A stretch of DNA of 61,915 nucleotides, filler included. It is 13 parts of 13 records of this genome, joined end to end, with 100 filler letters (N's around TTAATTAATTAA, not from the genome) between each part and the next. Parts side by side here need not be neighbours in the genome. Positions count along the whole stretch, not along the records: positions 58,671 to 61,915 come from SRR7504441_19332; 12 more parts are not named here. One strand, written 5' to 3'. This document shows positions 5,032 through 61,915 of this stretch, in pieces (position 1 is the stretch's first letter; every line of letters begins with the position of its first letter). Position numbers and translations under genes: made by a program. Under the pieces are notes generated by a model. It was not told the origin of the DNA. It saw only the letters and a program-made list of their open reading frames with translations, and did not search any database.

Positions 5032-5356
5032 GGTGTGGGTATACCCAAAGAGCCGAGAGACAGCGTCGCCAGCAAACAAGAAAGGTAGCCAAGAGTTCAG
5101 CGAGAGGAGCCAGATTGGTCAGAGCTGCCGGGTGGGCCCGAGATTGGTCGTGTGGGCCCGAGAAGAGTTCAGCGTGTCGCCACTGCCCCGTGCTGTGCAG
5201 TGGGGCAGCCCACGCTGGGTGGGTACAGAGCCTGGCTTGACGGAGCATTGGCTTGTGTGAACAACAACAACCTGCTGAAGACGCGGCAACTGCCCGGGTG
5301 CGGGGATGGCGCTGCTGCGCGCGAACCGTGAGTTGGAGCGCTGAGTGTGCGGGGTC

Positions 5357-6556
5357 ATGCTGCTGGACGGGTTCATCGAGCGGCTGTACCGGGGCGAGCT
5401 GCTGCGCGAGTCGGAGGTGGTCGGCCCGCCGGGCCGGGCCGAGGCCGGGCAGCTGGCGCTGGTGTGCGCCCAGCTGCAGGACGCGCTGCTCGACGAGTCA
5501 AACGTGCTGCCGATCAGCACGCCGGTCACAGTGTGTGGGGACGTGCACGGACAGTTCGACGATCTACTCGAGATATTCCGGGTGGGCGGCCGCTGCCCCG
5601 ACACCAACTACACCTTCCTGGGTGCCGGCCGGCCCGGGGCTGCCCGGCAGCCGCGGGGGAGGCGACTTTGTGGACCGGGGGCACGACAGCGTGGAGACAA
5701 TCAGCCTGCTGGCCTGCCTCAAGCTGCGGCACCCGGGCCGGATCTCGCTGCTGCGGGGCAATCACGAGTCCCGCCAGATTACTCAGGTCTACGGCTTCTA
5801 CGCCGAGTGCCTGCGCAAATACGGCGGCTCCGCAGCCCCCTGGCGCTGCTTCACGGACATGTCTCCCCCCCGAGTAGCCTGCGCCCAGCCCGGGGTCAGG
5901 TTTGACTATCTGCCGATCGCCGGGCTGATCGACGAGAGGGTGATGTGCGTGCACGGCGGTCAGAGCCCGCCAGCCCACCCGTGAGCCGGCGCAGGGCTCT
6001 CGCCGTCGGCGCACACGCTGGACCAGATCCGGGCGGCGTTCCGGTTCCAGGAGGTGCCGCACGAGGGGCTGCTGGCCGACCTGCTCTGGTCGGACCCGTC
6101 GACCGAGTGCGACGGGTTTGAGAGCTCGGCCCGGTGCGTGAGGCCGCACGGCCGGCGCGAGCCCCGGGGCAGCGGGGCCGGCTACTTGTTCGGGGCGGAG
6201 GTGGTCCAACGGTTTTTGTGGACCAACTCGCTTGAGAGCATCATCCGCGGGCACCAGCTGTGCACGGAGGGCTTCCAGAGCCTGTTCGACGATCAGCTGG
6301 TCACGGTCTGGTCGGCCCCTAATTACTGCTACCGGTGCGGCAACCTGGCCTGCCTGCTAGAGCTCGGCGAGAAGGCCGCCACCGCCCCCGTCTCCGAGTG
6401 GCACTTCAACCAGGCGCCGGCCGGTCTGCCGTTGCGGGCTGAGTTGGGCGACAGTTTAGTGCGGTGCCGCCTGAGCTGCGGCGCAAGTACAGCTCGGGGG
6501 TGGGCGACGGGCCGGGGGAGCCGGACGACGAGGAGTTGCCGGACTACTTTCTATGA
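5357..6556 (+). CDS. PPG1: PP2A-family Ser/Thr phosphatase catalytic subunit, PPG1-like, 6 introns, 322 aa
   Basis: Removing introns 5417-5452, 5622-5661, 5861-5899, 5959-5994, 6134-6172 and 6414-6454 (GC-AG) gives a continuous ORF with [39 protein letters not shown] and C-terminal DYFL*. The N-terminus [14 protein letters not shown] resembles fungal Ppg1. Confidence 0.88.
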
Positions 6557-6594
6557 CGTCGGTTTAAATAAAGGCCTAAGTAGTAAATTAATGG

Positions 6595-6921
6595 CTACAC
6601 GATGTGGCAACCGGCTAGGTCCGGGTCAGCCGTCGGCACCCGTTCGAACACCAAGCGGCTCCGGCCCATCTTGCCGGCTCGGTTGATCGTCCCGTAGATC
6701 GCTTCCGCCGTGCCCGAGGCCATTCCAGCCAGCCAGTGGAACAGGTGCAGCGCCAGGACGGCCAGCGCGCCCGGCTTGGCCGGCTGGCTGGTCCGATCGG
6801 GCACCGGTCGGCTCTTGCCGGTGCGGTTGACTCTGAAGCGCGACCGCCTGATCTGGACAGGCAAAGCTGCCCGGCCCATGTAGTCCGGCACCGGCAGGCA
6901 GCTCCGCAGCTCGCGCGCCAT
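6595..6921 (-). CDS. small hypothetical protein
   Basis: 108-aa ATG ORF ending in the AT-rich gap convergent with the phosphatase. No motif recognised. Confidence 0.3.
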   Translation of the reverse strand: MARELRSCLPVPDYMGRAALPVQIRRSRFRVNRTGKSRPVPDRTSQPAKPGALAVLALHLFHWLAGMASGTAEAIYGTINRAGKMGRSRLVFERVPTADPDLAGCHIV

Positions 6922-10758: not shown

Positions 10759-12455
10759 ATGGGCTGCAGGTCATCAGCTTGCACGGCAACAATCGTGCTG
10801 CTGGGCGGGGCTCTGGCGGCGTACCAGGGCGAGGCTTTGCGGCCATGGTATCATTTCACCCGGCAGCACGGCGAGATGAAGTGCCTGCCCGGCCCGGCCC
10901 CGCTGAGCCGGGTGGCAGCGACCCGAACGGGTTACAGTGGCGCCGGGTGAACGGATCGGTGCGGTACGAGATGTTCCACCAGCACAACAACGGCAGCACC
11001 GCCTGCTACGGCTCCGAGGGCAGCGGGGACGTCTGGGGGCATGCCTCCTCGCCGGACCTTGTCCGTTGGACCCGCTGGCCGCTCACCGACCGGATGACCT
11101 GCGCCTCCACCGGGGCAGGCATCACGCTCCCGCCCGATTTCCGGGGCCCGAACGGCGAGCGCTGGCTGAGCGCCAACTTGGGTTCGGCCCCGGCGATGAA
11201 GCCCAACCCGGACGAGACGGTGGGCCGGGGGCTCAAGCTTTGGACTTCCAATGACTCGCGGACACTCAACTACTATGATGAGTATCTGCCGCCCGGTACA
11301 GCCACAATAGACAACCAGACGCGCCAGAACAACGCGTGTGTGATCTGCCCGGCCAAGGTGCGCCAAGGCGCTTCCAATCCGCCGAGCTGGACGCGCGCGG
11401 CCGACATAGGCGATTCGTACATTTGGAGTGAGCCGACCTGGGACAAGCCTTCGAACAATCGAACCTTCTACGCCATGTCCGGCCAGGGCCGCTGCCCGGC
11501 CGGCGGGCCGCCCATGTGGTGCGGCTGGGCCAACGGGCGGGAGCCGCAAGTGCTGCTGTGGTCGTCCAAGAATCTTGTCGACTGGCGGTTTGTCTCTGAA
11601 TTCTACAACGGAACAGCTGACGATCGCACGGCGGTGATGACCCCCGAGACGTTTACGTTTGCAACGGGCGAGCAGGCGCTGATTTGGCTCGGGTCGCACA
11701 ACTCGCTCTACGTGACTGGCCTAGCTTCCCGCCGTGACGGCGAGATTTATGCATTTCGGGAGCGGCAGTTTAATGGAAATCCAAGTACCGGCTCTGTGGA
11801 CCTCGGCGGCGGCACCCACTGCGGCCAGTCCATGTGGGACGCGGCGGGGCGGCGGGTCCAGTTCATGTGGCTTGGGCTCAGTCTTCCGGGTGCGAGCTGG
11901 ACAGGGGCACAGACAATCGCCCGCGAGGTACTGCTGGCCCCGGTGAGCCCAAGCGCCACTGGCTTGTGGTTTCGGCCCATTCCGGAGATTGCCAGCCTGC
12001 ACACCTCCGTGGCGCCCGGCCTGGCGGAGCGGTACGTCATTGCCAATGATACTCGGCGGCTGTTCTCTCCTGAAGATGGGATGCACTGCCATATCAAGCT
12101 GGCAGTTACGCCGGGCGAGGCCGGAGTGCTCAACGTCACAGTGAGGGATGGCGTGCAGCCTGGGTCGACGGGCAGCCTCGCGATTTCTGTGGAGCAAGCT
12201 GGCGGCAACCGGACCGTGACATTTGGGCGGCAGTCCGTGACAGTGGCCCGGCCCGGTGAGCAAGTGGAGCTTGAAGTATTCGTGGACGGCCCGATCGTGG
12301 AGCTGTTTGTGAACGGCGGAGAGCGAGTTATGACCACGAATTCTGGCAACCCGAGTGTCATAGCAAGCGACAAGATTGGGGTGGAGGGCAGCCGGAACGT
12401 CGAGGTTGACCTGCAAGTGTGGGGAATGCAAGAAGCTATATCCGGGCCCAACTAG
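10759..12455 (+). CDS. secreted GH32-family glycoside hydrolase (divergent), 1 intron
   Basis: Hydrophobic leader (TIVLLGGALAA) and RPWYHF. Intron 10881-10918 restores MNDPNG. Also WGHASSPDLVRW, GRRVQFMW and the C-terminal beta-sandwich motif LEVFVDGPIVELFVNGGE. Confidence 0.88.
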
Positions 12456-12570
12456 ATCAACTCTAGTCGAGACCTCCTACATTGTTAGAACATCAAGTGC
12501 CTGTGCAATTGTGTGCATTGTTAAACTGACTTTCCTCCTGCCTCGAATTCCGTTACTCCTTGCCCTGGCA

Positions 12571-13572
12571 ATGCTGAGGAGCGGGGCGGGGAGGTGGTGC
12601 AGCACAGTGGTGCTGCACCCTCATCTCAAGGCCCAGCGGCGGGGCCGGCTGCCGCCCGAGGTCCAGCTGCAGGAGATCACCCAGCTTGCCAAGGCCGCAG
12701 GCTGGGCCCCGGACCAGTCGGCGGTAGTCTCGGTGCGCGACACCAGAGCCAAGTGGCTGCTGGGCAAGGGGGCCTGCGACACCGCTCTCGGGGTGATCAG
12801 GCAGGCGGCCAGTCCGGTGGCCCGCGTGGTGGTCAACGCGCCGCTCTCTGCACTGCAGACGCGCAACCTCGAGGAGTTTTGGGGGGTGCCGCGGTGCGGG
12901 GCGGCCGGGTGCCGGCTGACCAGGTGCAGGGTGATGGACCGCGTGGGGACAATCCTGGCCATCTTCGCGGCCCGGGCGCGCACGGCCGAGGCCCAGATGC
13001 AAGTTGAACTGGCCCAGCTGACTTATGATAGCGCCCGGCTTATCAAACCAGCAGGCAGCGCCCGGCACCAGAGCTGGGCTGAACCCGGGGGCAGGGGCAG
13101 CCGACCTGGAGCTGATGGATCTGGACCAGCAGCGGGGCGGGAGCGGGGCCATGGCCGGGGCGGGCGAGACCAGGCTGGAAGTGCAGCGACGGAAGATCCG
13201 AGCCAGGCAGGGTCAACTCCGCCGCAAGCTGAACCAGGTTCGCAAGCAGCGGAGCACGCGGCGGAGCAAGCAGCGAGCCGGGTTCCCGCTGGTGGCGATG
13301 GTCGGGTATACGAATGTAGGTAAGAGCTCGCTGTTCAATCGGCTCACGAGGGCGAGCAAGGCGGGAGTCGATGACGCGGTGTTCGCTACTTTGGATCCCA
13401 AGCTGCGCGACTGCTACCTGCCGCACAATGGCGCCCGCTGCCTGCTTACCGACACAGTCGGGTTTGTCTCCGACCTGCCTCACTTGCTGGTCCGTGCGTT
13501 CGGAGCTACTCTCGAGGAGGTAGCGCTCGCAGACTTGATTTTACACGTGAGAGACGCGTCGCTGCCGGCCGA
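12571..13572 (+). CDS. hflX: HflX/GTPBP6 GTPase, likely mitochondrial, 3'-partial
   Basis: Introns 12894-12929 and 13055-13094 (GC-AG). IFAARARTAEAQMQVELAQL, GAGETRLE, GYTNVGKSSL, FATLD, DTVGF; Arg-rich N-terminus. Confidence 0.92.
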
Positions 13573-14011
13573 NNNNNNNNNNNNNNNNNNNNNNNNNNNN
13601 NNNNNNNNNNNNNNNNTTAATTAATTAANNNNNNNNNNNNNNNNNNNNNNNNNNNNNNNNNNNNNNNNNNNNGTCTTCGACGAACTGAGTCTCGGCGTAG
13701 TCATATCAATGGCAGGTACCGCAGCACAGCATTGGATGGTACATCTGCCAGGTGGCGCAGAGTAGGCGCAGAGCAACAAGCACTGCGAGAGCATCAAAGA
13801 CGTCATCAAGCACACCCGACAAGCGAATGGATCCAACTGAAGACCGGCAGCTGGGTACTTACACAACTCGCCATGTACGCCCAGCCCAGCCTGGACAGAC
13901 TGGCGACACGTGTGTCCGTTTGTCTCTTATTGAAGAGTTGATTTTTTTTACTAACAGGAGTAACAGCGCCGACAACTGAGCAAGAAATAGACTTTAGTTA
14001 GACCAACCACA

Positions 14012-30875: not shown

Positions 30876-32712
30876 TTCGAAAGCACTCACACCACTCGTT
30901 GAGGCTTATGGTACCATTTCCGTCGAAATCCATCATATCAAATAGAGCGTCCGGGTCTTCAAGCTTTGGTCGTTCTCGGCTCGGATCCGCTTTCTCCAGC
31001 AACTCGAGTGCCAGCGCAAACTCCTCACGATCCACGCTGCCGGATCCATCCTTGTCCACAAACCGGAACACGGCAGTCAACGTTTCGTGGTTGCGGTACA
31101 GCGCCTCGAGCGACGTGCGTTGGGCCGAGGGCGCTAGCTCGTTGCCCATCTGTAACTTGTATTGGTTGAGCCACGCTTCATACTCCACCCCACCCGGACT
31201 GAGCCACTCACCCACCAGACTGGAGCACATTCCGGCCCAATCCACCTGGTCGCCCAACTGCTGGCCCATCGCCCGGCTCCAGTCGGCCTGGGACACATGT
31301 ACCCGGTCGGACGATGCCTGGCTCAGCCTATCGAGCAGCTGGTCGCGCTGGCTGAAGATGAGCTGGTTCAAGCTGTGTGTGTTGATCACCCGCAGCGCCT
31401 CCTCGTCCTCCACCTCGCCCGTCTCCAGCCGCATCACCTCGACCGGAGCCGGACCCACCTTCCCGCAGGAGGCCGCGTGCAGCCGGAGCACTGCCGCTGC
31501 AAAGGCTCACCGGGGATGGGCCCAAAGCCGGGCACCGCGGTTCATACCCTGGTTGTTAGGGTAGTTGGACGCAGAGAAGACTGTGTACATATCCACCCCC
31601 GGCTTGCACTGGTGCCGCTCCACCCCAGCCGGTACACACTGATGCGACCTGCCGGCCAGCTCATCCAGCCCAGGCCCGCTGCCCGCCTGATCAGCGTAGG
31701 CACTCCGACCACCTCGAGCCAATCAGCCACCAGGTCATATCCATAAAAGCAGCCGGCGCCCCGACTCTCGTTCGGGCGGGAGCCTCGCTGATCGGGGTCC
31801 GGGTCTGACCAGAGGAGCTGTTGGACTGGGCTGTCGGGCACTAGAGTGGAGCTGAGCTGGCTGGGCTGCAGCTGATCGAGCGTGTGCCAGACGGCTGGGT
31901 CAGGGCCTACCCCTCCGTGCACTACGAGCGCCCTGCCCTCGACCAGCGTGCACAGCGGCAGTCGATTGAACACCCGGTTTATCCTGTCCAGGATAGTCCT
32001 GCCCTGTCCCGGGTACTTGTTCAGCACCTCCGCCTCGAAATTAAACACCCGCTGCCCTGCCTGTGAGCCACTGCCAGTCAGCGGCAGGGACCGTGATTGC
32101 GGCATCCTCGTGGTTCCCTCGATTGATGTGTACCCACTCCGGCCAGACCAGTTTGAGGCAGAGCACCGTGAACAGCGTCTCGAGCCCGGACGTGCCTCGG
32201 TCTACCAGATCTCCGTTGAAGATGAACAGGTTGCGCTCGGACGGCAGCCCGCACTGTGTGAACACTTGGACAAGGTCGGCGTACTGACCATGCAAGTCCC
32301 CCACCACCGTCACGCACCCGCGGCCCACTGGGGCCGGCAGCCGGGTGATCGGTCGGGTGTTGGCCAGCCAGCTGGCCTCCACCTGGTCGAGCACCTGATG
32401 TACCGCCCTCGGGTGCAACCACCGCCGCTGCTCGAGCCCGCGTACCATGGACACCAGCCCCACCTCGTCGAGCAGCTCCGGCAGCCGGACCGCGTCGGCA
32501 GGGGCGTCGGCTACAACCAGCTCGACGGTCTGGTCACTGGGCTGGGCCGGTTGGTGCGGGGCCAGCTGCGAGAGCCCGTCGAGCAGCCTGGCCAGCGCGA
32601 CCTTGGCGGCCTCGGCCTGCAGATCGAGCGAGTTCATGATCTGCCACTCCCGCCCGCCCGAGCACCACCGCCGCACCCCGCGCCCCGACGCCGCCCGCAC
32701 CAGCCGGTACAT
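30862..32712 (-). CDS. PPEF: PPEF/rdgC-type Ser/Thr phosphatase with EF-hands, 3 introns
   Basis: WQIMNSLD, GDLHG, GDLVDRG, GNHE, HGG, LLWSDP, RSHQ, FSASNY; C-terminal EF-hands DKDGSGSVDREEF and DFDGNGTISLNEW. Confidence 0.9.
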
Positions 32713-32776
32713 GCCAGAACACGTCTCCTCCCGTCCGTCCGATCCCGGCCCGGCGGAAGACTCCCGGCGGCGCGAG

Positions 32777-34570
32777 ATGCTCGGGACGCCGGCGTGGCCC
32801 GAGTACTACGCAGCGGCTCCCCATCGGCCCGGCGGCCGTCCGGTGTTTGTGCTGGTGGCCGGGGAGTCTGCCCAGCTGGTCCGGCGGATCTTCTCCGGCG
32901 AGGCGGCCGCGCTCTCCCCGACCGGCGGGCACTGCTCGATCACCCACCTCGGATGGGCCTATGCCCAGCTCCGGCGGCGGTTCGCCCGGGATCAGATCGT
33001 GGTGGTGGCCCAGCTGGCCGAGCTGCGGGCAGTGCTCCGGGTCGGGGCGGCCACGGGGCGGCCACAGCTGGCCGGGCAGTGCCCACTGATGAGTCGAGTG
33101 ATCCACAGTACCTGCCTGGCCGGGCTGGAGCAGGCCTGCCAGCTGCTCATCGATGAGGGCGGACCAGACTTCGACGGGGAGCGTGTCCGGCCCGACACTC
33201 TTGAAGCCGTGCTCACTGGGCACCCGGCGGTGGCCCAGGCGAGCAGCCTGACCGTGGCGCTCTACTCGCACGGCGACTCGTCTCCGACCCAAATCGGCTT
33301 CTTCAAAGGTGCCAGGCCGGTGGCGAGTGCCTGCAGCCGTGGGCAGACTGCGACGCGACTCGCCAGTGGTTTGCCTATCTCCCGTATGGCGGAGTGCTCA
33401 CCGCAGACCGGCTGAGTTCTATGCTCACGCGCTTCTTCACCGACCGGCCTGACTGCCCGGTGGTGCTACTGCTCAAGTGCCCGCCCGCCGGTGCCTGGCT
33501 CAGTTGATGGGCAGCTGCTGCCGCTCGGGCGGTTTCCTGCCTGCGCTACAGGCGCTCGACCCTGTTTGGCCATTGGTCCGCTAGCCCGCCAATCTGATTG
33601 GCTCATCCGGTGGCAGTTTGCGATGTGCTCATCCCAACCGGATGTGGACTCGCTGGTGGGCGGGCTCTGGAGCGCCTGGTTCGAGGAGTTGCTCGTCCAG
33701 CTCAACCGGCCGGGCTGTTCGCTGCTTGAGCTCTGGCAGCTGGTCTGCTGCCCGCCCCCACCTGGCTGACCGAGCGCAGGCGGTCAAGAGGTTCCACTAC
33801 AGCAACGCCTATGAGTTGGCCGACGGGTTGATCGCCAGCACCATTGTCCGGCCCGGTCCAGCCGGCTGCCGAGTCGGTGCAGGTCCCCGAGAGACTCAAG
33901 CTCAAGCGGTCGCTCGCTGTCCGCCGAGCCCTCACCCGGGCTGACGGGATCGACGAGCCGGCGCTGGCGAGGCTGACTGAGGAGCTCCGCCCGATCCGGC
34001 CAGTCCGGTGCGTCCAATGCGCTGAGCCTGGGGTGGTGGGCCGGGAGGATTGTCATTGGCTCTGCTCGCGCTGCCATAGGGTGTGCTTGGGCTAGGGCCT
34101 GGCGTGAGTGAGTGGTCAGGAATGGTCGGCGCACGAAGTTAGGCCAGAGCTGCCTCGCCCGGTGATCGAGGCGGTCGACTTTGTGGAGGTGCCAGCCAGT
34201 GCGAGTGGGCAATGAACGGTCCGCGCAGGAGACCAGAAAGGCGGGCGAACGGGTGGCTCGACCGTGCTGCCACCACACTCCAGCAGCAGCGGCCGCTCTG
34301 GTGTCGCATGTATGGCACAGCGCCAGCTCGGAGCCTGGCGCTGATGCAAGCTGCTGGCGGTGTTGTATATGTGGCTGCGACACGCCTGGCGACCAGCCAA
34401 ACTGCTCGGGCTGCTGCGCACCTAGGGCTATGGACTTTGATAGATTCGACTTGGGGTCCGAGGCTGGGCTGGTCGAGTACCTAGAAGAGATGTTCAACGT
34501 ACGAAAGAGCCAGCGCCAGGCTGAGTGTGCCGATTGCTCAGGCGCTGTGGACCATGGGGATGCTAAATGA
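32777..34570 (+). CDS. legumain-like (clan CD, C13-like) cysteine peptidase with C-terminal zinc fingers, 7 introns, ~507 aa
   Basis: Introns 33309-33346, 33477-33514, 33576-33616, 33743-33779, 33846-33882, 34081-34119 and 34189-34228 give a continuous ORF. Motifs: VFVLVAG, WAYAQL..DQIVVV, DFDGERVRP..VLTG, LYSHG, LLLNCCRSGG, FAMCSSQPDVDS, and WRCCIC-x10-CSGC. Alternative start at 32711. Confidence 0.7.
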
Positions 34571-40794: not shown

Positions 40795-41709
40795 TTAATC
40801 AGCTCGAAAGCTTCGCCATTTGTCCTTCCACTCGACAATCGCTTTCAAGCCTTGGTCTCGGAAGTCTATGGCTTCCGACCGACTTTGTCGCTGCTTACCC
40901 AGCTGCTCGTGAATTTTTTCCACAGCACCCGGTGGCGGCTCACTCCACACATCCATATCGGCCCAGCAAGGCTCAAAGCAGCCCTTGCCGATCGTTTCGT
41001 AAAACCCTTGGTAGCCGGCCTCGCCCCCACCGAGATCAAACACCTGGTGCATGCCCATGAGCGCCCACCGCACCCCGGGTCCCTCATGCAGCGCCCGGTC
41101 CACGTCCTCGACACTCGCCACGCCATTGGCCACTAGACTAATCGCCTCCCTCCACACAGCAGCCTGCAGTCGGTTGGCGATGTGTCCGTCCACCTCCTTC
41201 TCCAGCACCACTGGAGCCTTGCCCAGCGCCCCGAAGAACCCCGCGACATCCTTTACTACGCTCCTCTCGGTGGCTGGCCCGGGAACAAGCTCCACCAGCC
41301 TCAGCAGGTGCGGCGGGTTGAAAGGATGGGCCACCAAGCTCCGCCGCCCGAGCTCGGGCCCAACCGCTTCTTGTAGCCGGGAGACCCTCAGGCCGGAGGT
41401 AGAACTCCCGAGCACGGCACCAGGGCCGGAGTGTGCCTCCACCGCCCGCCAGACCGCCGCCTTCACACTGTACTCCTCCTGCACGCTCTCTTGCACATAC
41501 TGCGCGTCAGCCACCGCCGCCTGGATCGAGGGGGCCAGCTCGAGCTGCGCACCGGCCCCGGCGATCGACTGAGCCGCGGCAAGCCCCGCTGCGGCTGTGG
41601 GCGGGTGGTTGTCGAACAGAGTCACCTGCAGCCCGGCCCGCGCGAACAGCCCAGCCCACGAGGCCCCGATCGTGCCGCAGCCCACCACCGCCACCCTCGT
41701 GTACTCCAT
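40795..41709 (-). CDS. 3-hydroxyacyl-CoA dehydrogenase family (CRYL1/L-carnitine dehydrogenase-like)
   Basis: VVGCGTIGASW, VQESVQE, SSTSG, HPFNPPHL, GHIANRLQAAVWREA, GPGVRWA; intronless. Confidence 0.92.
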   Translation of the reverse strand: MEYTRVAVVGCGTIGASWAGLFARAGLQVTLFDNHPPTAAAGLAAAQSIAGAGAQLELAPSIQAAVADAQYVQESVQEEYSVKAAVWRAVEAHSGPGAVLGSSTSGLRVSRLQEAVGPELGRRSLVAHPFNPPHLLRLVELVPGPATERSVVKDVAGFFGALGKAPVVLEKEVDGHIANRLQAAVWREAISLVANGVASVEDVDRALHEGPGVRWALMGMHQVFDLGGGEAGYQGFYETIGKGCFEPCWADMDVWSEPPPGAVEKIHEQLGKQRQSRSEAIDFRDQGLKAIVEWKDKWRSFRAD

Positions 41710-41847
41710 GCTGGACACTGCGCAGCTGCGCAGCCGGCACTGGGAGCGCATCCTACGAGCCAGGCCTGCAGTCCTCATCCCGGGCGGTGCCGTCTGCTCT
41801 CAGACGGAGCATGCCGTTACTCGGGAGTTACTAGGCCCCTCTGCGGC

Positions 41848-51814: not shown

Positions 51815-52131
51815 GTGACTGCACGAGTATACAGCTTCAATGCTGGGTGCAAATACCCAGTGTTAAGATGGTGTACGCGTATATACGGTTGGAATAATTA
51901 ATTGGAGTTCGAGCTCTCGTCGCGGCTCTCTCAGTATAGTAGGGTTCTCCGCTCATGTCTCCGATTATGATAATCAATCGTATACCATTCAGCCCGTGTT
52001 TTATTCATGAGCCGAGGCTTCAGATTCCCACACCATCATGCAAGCCCACATCTCTCTTTCATCTCTCTCGCGAGCACCTTAGCTATAGCTAGCTTGTCTG
52101 AGACCGTGCAACGAATCTACGAGTAACGGCA

Positions 52132-53067
52132 ATGTCAATGGTCATCTGGTCACTCTGCTACCTCGTCGTGCTCGCCACAGTCGCGGTGGGGGCCGACGAG
52201 ACGGTGTTCTACCTGGGCGACCCCCAGATTGGGTTCGGCCGGTCCGGCTGGCGGGAGGACGAGCTTCGCTTCGCGGCCGCAGCGCGGGCCGCCGGGAACG
52301 CGACGGCTGTGGTGGTGGCTGGCGACCTGATCAACGTGTGGGACAATCAGACCTTAACGGCCGGATTCGACCGGGTGTGGCCGGCCATGTTCGACCGGTC
52401 GCGCGTGCACCTGATCCCGGGGAACCACGACGTCAACAGCGCGGGGAACAGTGCGGCAGTGCTCAGGAGCCAACTCGAGCACTATTGGGCGGCCTTTGGG
52501 CCGGACTACCACTCGTTCACCACGCAGTACGCCACCTTCGTGATGGTCGATTCGGAGACGCTGATTGCGCCGATGCTCGGGCTGAAGGGGACCAGTGATC
52601 CGTGGGTGTGGAACCAGAGCCAGGCGCAGTGGCAGTGGCTCGAGGCCACCCTGAAGGCGGCGAGCACACCCCACAAGGTGCTCGTCTCGCACCACCCTCC
52701 ATTCCTCAAGAGCCCGACCGAGCCGGACGTGTACTGGAACTGGCCCAACGCCATAAGACCTCGCCTGCTCGGGCTACTCGCAAAGTATGGCGTCAGAAAC
52801 GTGCTTGCAGGCCACACCCACACGACCACAAGCCGCACCGTAGGCGGGCTGTCCATCTACACCGTCGCGGGGACGGCCCGCGCGTTTGACAGCAACGGCT
52901 GCGGCTACCGCGTGCTGCGGATCAACGAGACTAGCATCGAGAGCGAGTATGTAAGGCTGGACAACCCGGCGCTCGTGCAGTGCACGCCGAGCCTGACGCA
53001 CCCGGATTTTGAGGACAATCCGCTGCTTTCGCGGACCTGGGCAGACGTTCGCTGGTTGCTCGATTGA
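52132..53067 (+). CDS. secreted calcineurin-like metallophosphoesterase, CPPED1-like
   Basis: Signal peptide; GDPQIG, AGDL, GNHD, HHPPF, GHTH; intronless. Confidence 0.88.
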   Translation: MSMVIWSLCYLVVLATVAVGADETVFYLGDPQIGFGRSGWREDELRFAAAARAAGNATAVVVAGDLINVWDNQTLTAGFDRVWPAMFDRSRVHLIPGNHDVNSAGNSAAVLRSQLEHYWAAFGPDYHSFTTQYATFVMVDSETLIAPMLGLKGTSDPWVWNQSQAQWQWLEATLKAASTPHKVLVSHHPPFLKSPTEPDVYWNWPNAIRPRLLGLLAKYGVRNVLAGHTHTTTSRTVGGLSIYTVAGTARAFDSNGCGYRVLRINETSIESEYVRLDNPALVQCTPSLTHPDFEDNPLLSRTWADVRWLLD

Positions 53068-58670: not shown

Positions 58671-59965
58671 GAACGGCAGGCGGCAGCAGACGCGTTGGCT
58701 CAGCCTCCAGCTGATCAGGTCCAGCCGGCGGCTGAACCAGCCCCCACGGCTGAGCCGGCACCAGTGGCCGCAGCGCTCTGGAACTCGGACCGGGTTTACG
58801 TCAAGCTGAGTCCAAGAGAACAAGCAGACGGCCAGAAGTCAAGAGTAGTCGGGGAGCACAGCGGCTGGATCCGTGCGGCTGCGGTGGCCGGCAGCGTGCT
58901 GGTCACTGCTGGACACGACAACAGGCTCAAATTCTGGGGACTGACAGATACCATGCCCCTGCTCGGCTCGGCCTCGGCTCACAGCCATTGGGTGCGGGCG
59001 GCCGTTGAGTCAGGCTCAGCTGGCGGTGGCAGGTGACGGCTCTGTGCACAATCGATGCCGGGAGGGTGGCCAGTGCCAGCTTTGATGGCACGGTCCGGGT
59101 CTGGGACGTGCCGCAACAGCGGGTGCTCAACGTGCTGAACGGGCACCTGTCCGTGGTGTACACCGTGGCCAAATTCGATGAGTCGAGGCTCGTGTCCGGA
59201 GGGGCCGATCGCAAGCTCAAGATCTGGGATTTGGAGGGCGCTGCGTGCCTGGCCAGCTTGGCAGGGCACGACGACGTGATAGGAGCAGTTGCCAGGGTGG
59301 CCGCCCCTGCGCCGATTGGATCGAATCGCGAGATCAGGTGAACCAGCGGATGGTGGCTAGCGCTGGCTGGGACACAGTGGCTCGGCTGTGGGTGGAGAGC
59401 GCGCAGGGTGAGTCAACGGATAGCTTAGCTCTTAGTCGGTCCGGCAGGTTGGAGCTGCGTGCACGTGCTTGCTGGGCATCGCGACTGGGTCCGGGCTGTT
59501 GCCGCGGTCGAGGTAACTATCCGGCCGGTGCAGGCACGAGCGTTTCGCAGGTTGGGCCGGGAGAGCAGCAAATCGTGACTGGTAGGCCGGTGGTCTGGCT
59601 CGGCTTGCAAGCATGGTCGGACAGGCTCTGACGATGGGACGATCCGGGTGTGGGACCTGGGTGGAGACTGCGTGGCGACTGCAGATGCGCACTACTCATC
59701 GGTCGAGTGAGTCTCTAGCCCTAGGCAAGAGGTGACCATGTGGCGTGTCAACAGATGCCTTGTAGCGCTTCCTGATTGCGAGCTCCTCCTAAGTGGCGGA
59801 GGAGACAGTCGCGTGAGGGCATGGAGATTGTGTGATAATCAATTGGAGTTGCACGACACGTACTTGGAGCATCAGTCCTGCGTTCGATCTATAGCGCACC
59901 ATGAGCGCTGCTTCATTAGCGCTGGGGACGACAAGCAAATCAGGCGATGGGATTTGAGCAATTAG
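58671..59965 (+). CDS. WD40-repeat protein, 5'-partial, multi-exon
   Basis: Repeated GH...SxSxDxTVRVWD units (SASFDGTVRVWD, SGGADRKLKIWD, SAGDDKQIRRWD). Confidence 0.9.
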
Positions 59966-60215: not shown

Positions 60216-61492
60216 TTATTTTTGCGTTCTTAGGATGGATGCAGCGACTGATGCCGCACCGAAGCCGTTATCCACATTCACCACCGCCACCTAGACTCAA
60301 TATTGGCTTGCGCTCGAGCCAAGGCTTACCCCGGTTGCACAAGAATTGAGCATTGTCAACAGAGCTGCGACCCCACCAAAGCTAGCTCCATAACCGACAC
60401 TCTGCAGCCCATAGAGCTCAGCCGGCTGTTGGACCGTTTGCAAGCCACCGTCGGGACAGCGATCACTGGCGCCTGGATCAGTCCTGCCCCGCAGCCGTGA
60501 GCTCGGGGTGATCGACCGGGCACCAGCGACTGCGCTGGGCAGTGCACCATCCATACCAGCCACCACCAGCACGACATCTGCCTGCGATATCTTGGGGATC
60601 TCGGCCAAAAGCCTGCAGCTCGCTAAATCAGGCTAGCCAAGCTGAGCACCGGTGGATGCCCGCAACCCCAACATCACAAACTCGTTCGACTGGGATTCCA
60701 AACAGCTCTGCAGCCCGACCGATCAATCGCCGCTGGGCTAAACACACTCACCGCACACAACAGCCGCTTCTTCCGCCACCGGCACGTCTGTGGTTCCGGC
60801 GCAGACCACAGCCACGCTTCCCCGCCTGCCAGACAGGATGCGGACTGCGCCGCTTGTTGGGCTACCAGAGCTCCGGCCTTGGCAGCCCGTGTGTGTGGCC
60901 CGGGGCGCCGCACGCGACTACCCTGGCCACCTCAAAGTATTGCTGCCCCGGAGCTAGGCCGCCGGGTCAGCTGCACAGCCCACCGGGTTGGGTAGCTCTC
61001 TGGTCTCGAGTTCCCGCCACAGGCTGGGGCCAACCCGGGTGGTGAGCACGCTGCCCACACCGGCTGGCCCGCATACGGCCGGCCAGTCGCCTCTGGTCTG
61101 GGTTGCGCTCGACTAGAACTCGGCTTATCTCCGCGATCTGCCGCTGATCAGCCCGGCAGCCCGGCCCCTGCCTGCTCGCTGGTCTTGCCTTCGCCGTAAA
61201 TCACCTCCGGCAGCCCTGTGCTGCCCCGCGCTGGCCACCTCCGACCACACAGCTCACCGCAGCGCTCGGTGGTGGTCCACGGTGGCTGTGCCACCGGCCA
61301 CCGGCTCGGCGAACACGTAGCGCACGCGGTCGAGTGCTTGGTCAACGGACAGCCGGCCCTGCGACGAGCTGAGCCCGCCGGGGAGCCAGGTGCCTGCGCC
61401 AGGCTCTCGAACAGCTGCTGCATCTCCGCCCGCCCAAAGCTCTGGCTGCATACTGTCCGCCGCAGCGCTCCCCGGGCTGCCCGGGTCCACAT
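60216..61492 (-). CDS. larB: LarB/CpmA-family (PurE-like) nickel-pincer cofactor biosynthesis protein, 11 introns, 280 aa, mitochondrial-type presequence
   Basis: Removing 11 introns of 34-47 nt (434 nt total, 3 GC-AG) leaves 843 nt in frame. Motifs: [97 protein letters not shown]. Confidence 0.93.
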
Positions 61493-61915
61493 GCTCACTG
61501 CAGTGCACGTTGTGAAGGGTTTTGGAAGGTGCAGTTCCAGCTGCTGTCGTGCTGTGTGGCGTGTGTGGCAGGAGCACGTTCACCGTAGAGTAGAGCAGGC
61601 TAGAGCGCAAGCCATTGACATGGAGGGAGAGTTGTTGTCAATGCTGTGCGCATGAGGCAATTGGCGGCAGCGGCACTCTCTGGTGACAATCTAAAAGACG
61701 TAAAAGACTAAAACTCGAGCTCCGCCCGCTTCGCCACAACATTACATGAAACACAAGTGCGTGAAATGTACAAGTGCGAGTACATAGTCGGTTACTTAGC
61801 TACTGGCAAAAGTACTCTGAGTTTCTAGGACAATCTGTCCTGACCTGCACTACCCGGTAGATCTGAAGGGAGGCTCGCGCACCGTGAGTACTGGATATTT
61901 TTTTCCAAAACTGCA

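Follow-up and report, generated by a model that had tools for sequence, protein, structure and literature searches.

The window analysed here is the whole stretch of 61,915 nucleotides (nt) of DNA, 62 kb in round figures, joined from 13 records of one genome. On its minus strand, at 60216..61492, lies a gene for LarB. This enzyme carboxylates NaAD (nicotinic acid adenine dinucleotide) with release of adenosine monophosphate, yielding pyridinium-3,5-dicarboxylate mononucleotide (P2CMN). LarE, which inserts sulfur, and LarC, which inserts nickel in a cytidine triphosphate-dependent reaction, then convert P2CMN into the cofactor, nickel-pincer nucleotide (NPN). To our knowledge, NPN is the only biological nickel-pincer cofactor, and it is LarB that commits NaAD to it. 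The gene model runs from an ATG at 61492 to a stop codon ending at 60216 and comprises 12 exons and 11 introns, with a coding sequence of 843 nt and a product of 280 amino acids. An earlier note on this DNA, made from the letters alone, had proposed the same coordinates, strand, exon and intron counts and protein length, and all of these were reproduced; the motifs it singled out, GIHRL, AGMDGAL and MLNSC, are all present in the spliced product. In tblastn, a bacterial LarB query finds the locus at an E value of 2e-24, versus a background of at least 0.04 elsewhere in the window, a match far beyond chance. The locus is a nuclear gene, transcribed and spliced, that encodes an intact LarB.

Exon 1 (61394..61492, minus strand like all features of the gene; 99 nt, residues 1–33) carries an N-terminal extension followed by the first part of the LarB N-domain. 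Its codons 1–23 (61424..61492) specify the extension itself, a basic segment without counterpart in bacterial LarBs that charge counts and alignment with relatives mark as a candidate organellar presequence. Exons 2 (61258..61358, 101 nt), 4 (61091..61137, 47 nt), 5 (60984..61050, 67 nt) and 10 (60449..60483, 35 nt) were placed by the gene model and checked at their junctions, while exon 3 (61172..61220, 49 nt), which holds a ten-residue motif, was placed by the gene model, homologue alignment and the same junction check. The 3′ part of exon 6 (60866..60942, 77 nt, junctions likewise checked) lies under an RNA contig from sequencing run X6. This contig also bears on exon 7 (60752..60825, 74 nt), in which the motif AGTTD includes the site equivalent to Ser127 of the solved LarB structure, on exon 8 (60650..60707, 58 nt), as placed by the gene model, and on exon 9 (60524..60612, 89 nt), which holds AGMDGALPS and gave an NCBIfam match. 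MLNSC is encoded in exon 11 (60330..60401, 72 nt), its Cys codon at 60339-60341 specifying residue 253. Exon 12 (60216..60290, 75 nt including the stop codon) was defined by the gene model and the NCBIfam search.

The introns are all short, measuring 35, 37, 34, 40, 41, 40, 44, 37, 40, 47 and 39 nt in order, and their density in the gene is one per 77 coding bases. Eight of the 11 have GT-AG ends and three (introns 1, 3 and 4, at 61359-61393, 61138-61171 and 61051-61090 on the minus strand) have GC-AG ends, with no suitably placed GT at these sites; every 3′ end is AG. The GC-AG reading of these three, which lie outside the RNA cover, is based on homology and the absence of an in-frame GT. Left unspliced, the minus strand from 61492 to 60216 contains no long open frame. 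When the spliced product was aligned with 238 homologues, no residue was missing relative to the majority at any of the 11 junctions; the extra residues, two near intron 4 and one near intron 6, both fall in variable loops.

Splicing is directly visible for part of the gene. A 207-nt contig from run X6, a poly(A) seawater metatranscriptome, lies on 60584-60911 with one mismatch in its 207 nt, and it skips exactly introns 8, 7 and 6, whose ends read CT..AC on the plus strand and hence GT..AG on the gene strand. For intron 8 (60613..60649, 37 nt, GT-AG) the contig joins 60611 to 60649 (cut at +1), skipping 37 nt; for intron 7 (60708..60751, 44 nt, GT-AG) it joins 60707 to 60752, skipping 44; and for intron 6 (60826..60865, 40 nt, GT-AG) it joins 60824 to 60865 (cut at +1), skipping 40. 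RNA cover of the gene is confined to 60584-60911, the intervals 60229-60552 and 60958-61915 being bare, and the other eight introns and the transcript ends are placed by homology.

To assign the protein to a family, exon pieces were compared with NCBIfam. The sole family matched was LarB (NF033503), by three of the four pieces at 64.7, 25.6 and 22.9 bits; the 33-residue piece from exon 2 had no NCBIfam match, and none of the four pieces matched Pfam, for which they are too short. The curated cut-offs are 175 bits for NF033503, an equivalog family scored on the whole protein, and 149.6 bits for the PurE family TIGR01162. As the window protein was scored by exon pieces, full-length relatives served as proxies for the 175-bit cut-off. 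Its four closest relatives, here called P0001, P0121, P0122 and P0123, score 271–281 bits against NF033503, and two other eukaryote-like homologues, P0026 and P0078, score 264–278 bits. On a profile built from 234 homologues the window protein itself scores 346 bits (the homologues range from 257 to 430, with a median of 397), and it keeps 63 of the 65 columns that are near-invariant (≥95%) across them, the exceptions being V to A and I to V. Identity in end-to-end alignment is 70% to P0001 (277 residues), 65% to P0121, 55% to P0122 and 54% to P0123, and that to bacterial LarBs is 50–55%.

PurE (N5-carboxyaminoimidazole ribonucleotide mutase/aminoimidazole ribonucleotide carboxylase, PF00731) has the AIRC fold found in the C-terminal half of LarB, and relatives of the window protein match the PurE structures PDB 2ywx and 1o4v at E values of 9e-11 and 2e-5. 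The likeness ends there. All six proxy homologues score only 25–42 bits against purE, below the 149.6-bit cut-off, the window exon pieces had no purE match, and the window protein has both the LarB N-domain and the MLNSC cysteine.

Comparison with the solved Lactobacillus plantarum LarB (7mj0_A) leads to the same assignment. Both proteins join a LarB-specific N-domain to a PurE-like AIRC domain, and the window protein keeps PEVI(Y/F)G.GKT, VAGIHRL, AGM(D/E)GAL, PTSVGYG and NIDNGFGAA. Window residues 24–110 align with bacterial LarB from about residue 6, and this region is the LarB-specific N-domain, including DHHR.LR and PEVI.G.GKT. P0001 matches 7mj0_A over residues 52-298 at an E value of 7.7e-60, and through P0001 the MLNSC cysteine of the window protein (residue 253) aligns with position 221. 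Cys221 we take to be the active-site cysteine of LarB. This cysteine does not vary in alignments of 14 and of 40 homologues. The title of Rankin et al. 2021 refers to a transient cysteinyl-pyridine intermediate in this enzyme. The differences from the solved protein are that the window gene is eukaryotic and has 11 introns, that its product has some 18–23 extra basic residues at the N-terminus and Thr in place of Ser127, and that it lies outside any lar operon. Judged from full-length alignment, the conserved columns and the cysteine, the assignment as a complete stand-alone LarB orthologue is secure, and on this point the earlier note was right.

We then turned to the N-terminal extension. 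In 159 BLAST rows, window residue 24 corresponds to bacterial residue 6 or 7. The extension reaches about 18 residues past the usual bacterial start, and 23 residues precede the second methionine (M24). Its first 20 residues include four Arg and no Asp or Glu; in seven bacterial LarB controls, the corresponding charge is +0 to +4, with one to four acidic residues. The 19-residue opening peptide reported in the earlier note is as it was quoted, an Arg-rich and acid-free start, the first acidic residue being E23. Basic, acid-free N-termini recur in five of seven eukaryote-like homologues (P0001, P0121, P0026, P0078 and P0211). M1 of the window protein aligns with M24 of P0001, M2 of P0121 and M1 of P0122, and the window protein and its four relatives have in common a short motif, Q-x-F/Y-G-R/T-x-E/Q, directly ahead of the LarB N-domain. 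In an AlphaFold model of P0121 (mean predicted local distance difference test score, pLDDT, 83.4), residues 1–13 have pLDDT <50, with a low-confidence helix over residues 2–12, and the fold starts near residue 23. Reading residues 1–23 for a hydrophobic signal-peptide core, we found none.

That the extension is a cleavable organellar presequence is a reasonable inference from these sequence and model features. On this account, the N-terminal ~18–23 residues, Arg-rich, acid-free and predicted to lie outside the fold, would direct the protein to an organelle and be cleaved off. The explanation that we favour overall, and hold to be somewhat better than an even bet, is that of a nuclear LarB of a protist, predicted to synthesize P2CMN and probably equipped with such a presequence.

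Several observations weigh against this explanation. The cytosol and nucleus are the main sites of NaAD synthesis, and we know of no nickel import into mitochondria; therefore an organellar LarB would need delivery of both substrate and metal. Among the relatives, the N-terminus of P0122 is acidic, and that of P0123 has two Glu in its first 10 residues. A crude measure of hydrophobic moment did not separate eukaryote-like from bacterial N-termini. With an AG 6 nt upstream of the ATG and a 5′ end outside the RNA cover, an upstream coding exon is possible. Finally, larC, larE and larA were all missing from the 62-kb window, where queries with three LarC, one LarE, one LarC-LarE and one LarA protein from bacterial lar clusters, identified by NCBIfam, gave best tblastn E values of 0.07–0.34, which is noise next to the 2e-24 of the LarB control. 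The LarB gene is therefore not clustered with other lar genes, which is normal for eukaryotes.

The best-surviving alternative is a cytosolic LarB, either with the extension as a tail peculiar to its lineage or with translation beginning at M24. Its substrate is expected to be mainly cytosolic; P0122 has an N-terminus that is equally long yet acidic; and residues 16–23 are conserved with relatives at the protein level, like mature protein. Moreover, compared with bacterial LarBs, a protein starting at M24 would lack only ~5 residues, and these are poorly conserved. The earlier note had itself named a start at this methionine (MQQLF) as something that would remove the presequence. However, at residue 24 the four closest relatives have I, M, L or V. 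Only one of them has Met there, and the other three, with I, L or V, need an upstream start. Because M24 is poorly kept as Met and residues 16–23 are conserved, a start there is unlikely, and translation from 61492 appears far more likely. No in-frame ATG was found between the upstream in-frame stop (open reading frame 61148..61579) and the ATG at 61492. The Arg-only charge pattern (+4/0), which is repeated in five of the seven eukaryote-like homologues, and the placing of residues 1–13 outside the fold in the P0121 model also speak against a cytosolic LarB. All in all, we consider a cytosolic LarB unlikely, though worth keeping in view. The region further upstream, 61493-61915 on the minus strand, becomes AT-richer beyond ~61680 and looks intergenic; ATGs at ~61652, 61620 and 61614 are out of frame.

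The evidence on the N-terminus favours a presequence yet fits a mitochondrion or a primary plastid alike. The mitochondrion is the most likely single location, with a chance that we place a little below even; absence of targeting seems clearly less probable, and a plastid less probable again, as far as the sequence allows these to be ranked. The earlier note had called the protein apparently mitochondrion-targeted. The basic extension, absent from bacterial LarBs, is confirmed, whereas the mitochondrion specifically is a conjecture beside which a plastid has to be weighed, given a cyanobacterial sister position; the acidic N-terminus of P0122 is a further reason for caution. A literature search found no paper on the localization of eukaryotic LarB, and the string ‘mitochondri’ occurs 0 times in the text of PMC11770544.

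The sister position comes from two trees. In a FastTree analysis of 239 rows, the window protein, P0001, P0121, P0122 and P0123 form one clade with support of 100, and this clade adjoins a 111-row group that contains 27 of the 28 named cyanobacteria; the support for the join is 36. An IQ-TREE analysis was restricted to 56 rows: 18 from cyanobacteria, six from other named bacteria, eight eukaryote-like (the window protein among them) and 24 unnamed rows picked at random, with the other 183 left out. Here, the same five-row clade (support of 93 in the Shimodaira–Hasegawa-like approximate likelihood ratio test, SH-aLRT) is sister to 17 named cyanobacteria (100), and the joint node has a value of 83. 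Likewise, of the best 120 matches to P0001, 26 carry an organism name, and every one of these is cyanobacterial. One caveat is that the tree rows were gathered by similarity to P0001 as the query, which biases towards such a result. These data provide a moderate hint that the LarB clade may be of cyanobacterial or plastid origin. A metagenome scan with P0001 returned at least 80 loci at 45–54% identity, with no close relative among the matches listed.

Cyanobacterial LarBs, such as that of Synechocystis sp. PCC 6803, are thus the nearest named bacterial kin of the window protein, at 53–55% identity and as its sister in the tree. They differ from it in starting 5–6 residues ahead of the position that matches window residue 24, in having no basic extension and in having mostly Ala at the Ser127 position. 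Cyanobacterial cpmA presumably belongs to the LarB family, although a literature search on this gave nothing relevant. As in the window, the cyanobacterial larB gene often has no larA nearby, according to PMC11796402. The same source reports that the LarB, LarE and LarC of Synechocystis produce the NPN cofactor in E. coli and that most cyanobacteria have larB, larE and larC and no larA.

It follows that a plastid deserves to be weighed as the destination. On this alternative, LarB would derive from the cyanobacterial ancestor of the plastid, carry a short transit peptide in an alga with a primary plastid and supply cofactor to an enzyme other than LarA. The named matches, the tree and the cyanobacterial pattern of lar genes without larA all speak for it. 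The joint node is, however, only moderate in the smaller tree (83) and falls to 36 in the larger one, and its rows were chosen by similarity to P0001. No gene in the window suggests photosynthesis. The extension is shorter than would be expected of a transit peptide, the lack of a signal peptide makes a complex (secondary) plastid unlikely, and the commonest phylum in an ESM Atlas cluster of eukaryote-like LarBs is the Oomycota, which are plastid-less. A plastid-targeted LarB is accordingly rather doubtful. The cyanobacterial sister position does not tell in favour of a mitochondrial reading either, as it fits a plastid protein and a retargeted protein equally.

Eukaryotic LarB genes are already on record. 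One ESM Atlas LarB cluster has 325 members, 59% of them Eukaryota, with Oomycota as the commonest phylum, and another has 64 members, 100% Eukaryota, with Bacillariophyta as the commonest; the representatives of the two clusters are 338 and 372 amino acids long, more than bacterial LarBs. According to PMC11770544, some unicellular eukaryotes carry NPN-biosynthesis genes and homologues of LarA; every eukaryotic LarA homologue belongs to the gluconate-2-epimerase branch, and LarAH15, a gluconate 2-epimerase of Phytophthora nicotianae, is the first of these with confirmed activity. The window protein resembles these eukaryotic homologues in kind, and P0026, P0078 and P0211 share basic N-terminal extensions with it; it differs in belonging to a separate five-member clade, known here from ~1-kb contigs only. 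The window gene is therefore a well-documented further member of a known enzyme family.

Within the host, LarB would carboxylate NaAD to P2CMN, and LarE and LarC would complete the cofactor. This cofactor might be used by a LarA homologue from the gluconate-epimerase branch, as in oomycetes, or by an enzyme other than LarA, which is the proposal for cyanobacteria; PMC13524815 describes a family of NPN enzymes that are not LarA. A bolder version of this scheme is that a little-sampled marine protist lineage makes NPN in its mitochondrion, using a retargeted LarB of cyanobacterial ancestry that feeds an enzyme other than a classical lactate racemase. This version, which combines several sequence-based predictions, we regard as possible but unlikely.

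A further alternative is that the protein belongs to the LarB family but works outside the standard nickel-pincer route, either in making a variant cofactor, for instance an adenine-dinucleotide form (mentioned in PMC13524815), or without LarC and LarE. Neither larC nor larE was found in the 62-kb window, and the residue equivalent to Ser127 of 7mj0_A (the Ser of AGTSD) is Thr in the window protein and Ala in most cyanobacterial homologues. According to PMC13524815, an S127A variant of LarB favours the dicarboxylated product and changes the balance between product and hydrolysis, and this position therefore tolerates change. Synechocystis LarB, from the Ala-bearing group, in fact supports normal cofactor synthesis (PMC11796402). 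Given also that the window protein keeps 63 of the 65 near-invariant columns and the cysteine, and that its closest relatives score above the equivalog cut-off, a non-standard role is improbable.

The earlier note had spoken of an undescribed organellar nickel biochemistry. ‘Undescribed’ is too strong, since eukaryotic NPN genes and an active oomycete LarA homologue have been published (PMC11770544) and the ESM Atlas holds eukaryotic clusters; the idea about localization, by contrast, has apparently not been addressed. A LarB in an organelle would extend known biology and would not amount to a new type of system. What the window adds is a clean, expressed eukaryotic LarB from open-water plankton, with three introns verified in RNA, in a field where LarB enzymology is prokaryotic and eukaryotic occurrences have merely been listed, save for one assayed oomycete LarA homologue. 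It further suggests that a basic N-terminal extension recurs among eukaryotic LarBs. Should this extension be a presequence, the questions become by what route nickel and NaAD would enter the organelle and what enzyme employs the cofactor inside it. If mitochondrial synthesis of NPN were true, marine eukaryotic plankton would have an organellar requirement for organometallic nickel, beside urease and Ni-superoxide dismutase.

The surroundings of the gene show what kind of host carries it. Eukaryotic architectures abound in the 62-kb window, among them protein kinase+RING, BTB+MYND, RCC1 repeats, an ABCG transporter, trypsin, peptidase S28, EF-hand and PPP-type phosphatases. A convergent gene with WD40 repeats (59400-59965, plus strand) ends ~250 nt from the LarB stop codon, and its GT-AG introns of 43 nt (59582-59624) and 48 nt (59707-59754) are removed in a contig from run X10. 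In a PPP-type phosphatase gene (5241-6683, plus strand), two open reading frames in the same frame surround a 36-nt GT-AG intron (~5957-5992) with an in-frame stop, and removal of this intron restores HGGLSP, which we take to be a motif of the PPP phosphatase family. Micro-introns are the rule in this organism, and LarB is unusually dense in them; many of the window genes have exons of 400–650 codons. Pieces of the window occur at 95–100% identity in contigs of four runs labelled as seawater or aquatic metagenomes, and 11 sequencing runs carry small shares (0.05–0.11) of its words. The host is a compact-genome, GC-rich marine protist. With 11 spliceosomal micro-introns of host type, spliced in seawater poly(A) RNA, LarB would be a long-standing resident of its genome.

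Bacterial contamination or an assembly chimera, which the overwhelmingly prokaryotic distribution of the LarB family might suggest, has practically no chance of being correct: a bacterium could not express a gene whose reading frame is interrupted by eleven introns, three of these are removed in poly(A) RNA, and the convergent WD40 gene, at a distance of 250 nt, shares this type of intron amid eukaryotic domain architectures across 62 kb, so that spliced RNA and micro-introns shared with eukaryotic window genes such as those for the WD40 protein and the phosphatase exclude contamination, as the earlier note had argued from the host-type introns. We also considered a low-GC outlier region of a prasinophyte genome, which in Ostreococcus has small introns; this was rejected, there being no named green-algal relative among the best matches to P0001 or to a dehydrogenase-like reading frame of the window.

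Two other genes in the window have N-termini of related appearance. An HflX-like GTPase at 12364-13621 (plus strand) is split over two frames, suggesting at least one intron, and has ~30 basic residues before its GTP-bdg_N domain; it is another candidate organellar protein. An intron-free open reading frame at 40798-41799 (minus strand), resembling 3-hydroxyacyl-CoA and L-carnitine dehydrogenases, has an Arg-rich N-terminus. Its best named match is in Symbiodinium natans (58%), followed by unnamed transcripts and planctomycetes (Gimesia, ~46%), all too remote to assign the host to a lineage, and it may be of bacterial origin. The Arg-rich starts of these two reading frames, whose roles are plausibly organellar, resemble that of LarB, an anecdotal likeness.

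Across positions 1–61915 we counted ~30 genes, most of them with long exons, and the GC content of 2-kb bins ranges from 0.52 to 0.69. Further Metallophos genes lie at 31545-32805 (minus strand) and 52102-53064 (plus strand). Scans of the whole window for tRNA genes and with Rfam gave no match. Downstream of LarB, in the intergenic or 3′-untranslated sequence between the convergent genes, a DNA contig from run X1 has a 12-nt insertion behind 60130 and six single-letter differences nearby; these represent strain-level variation in the environment.

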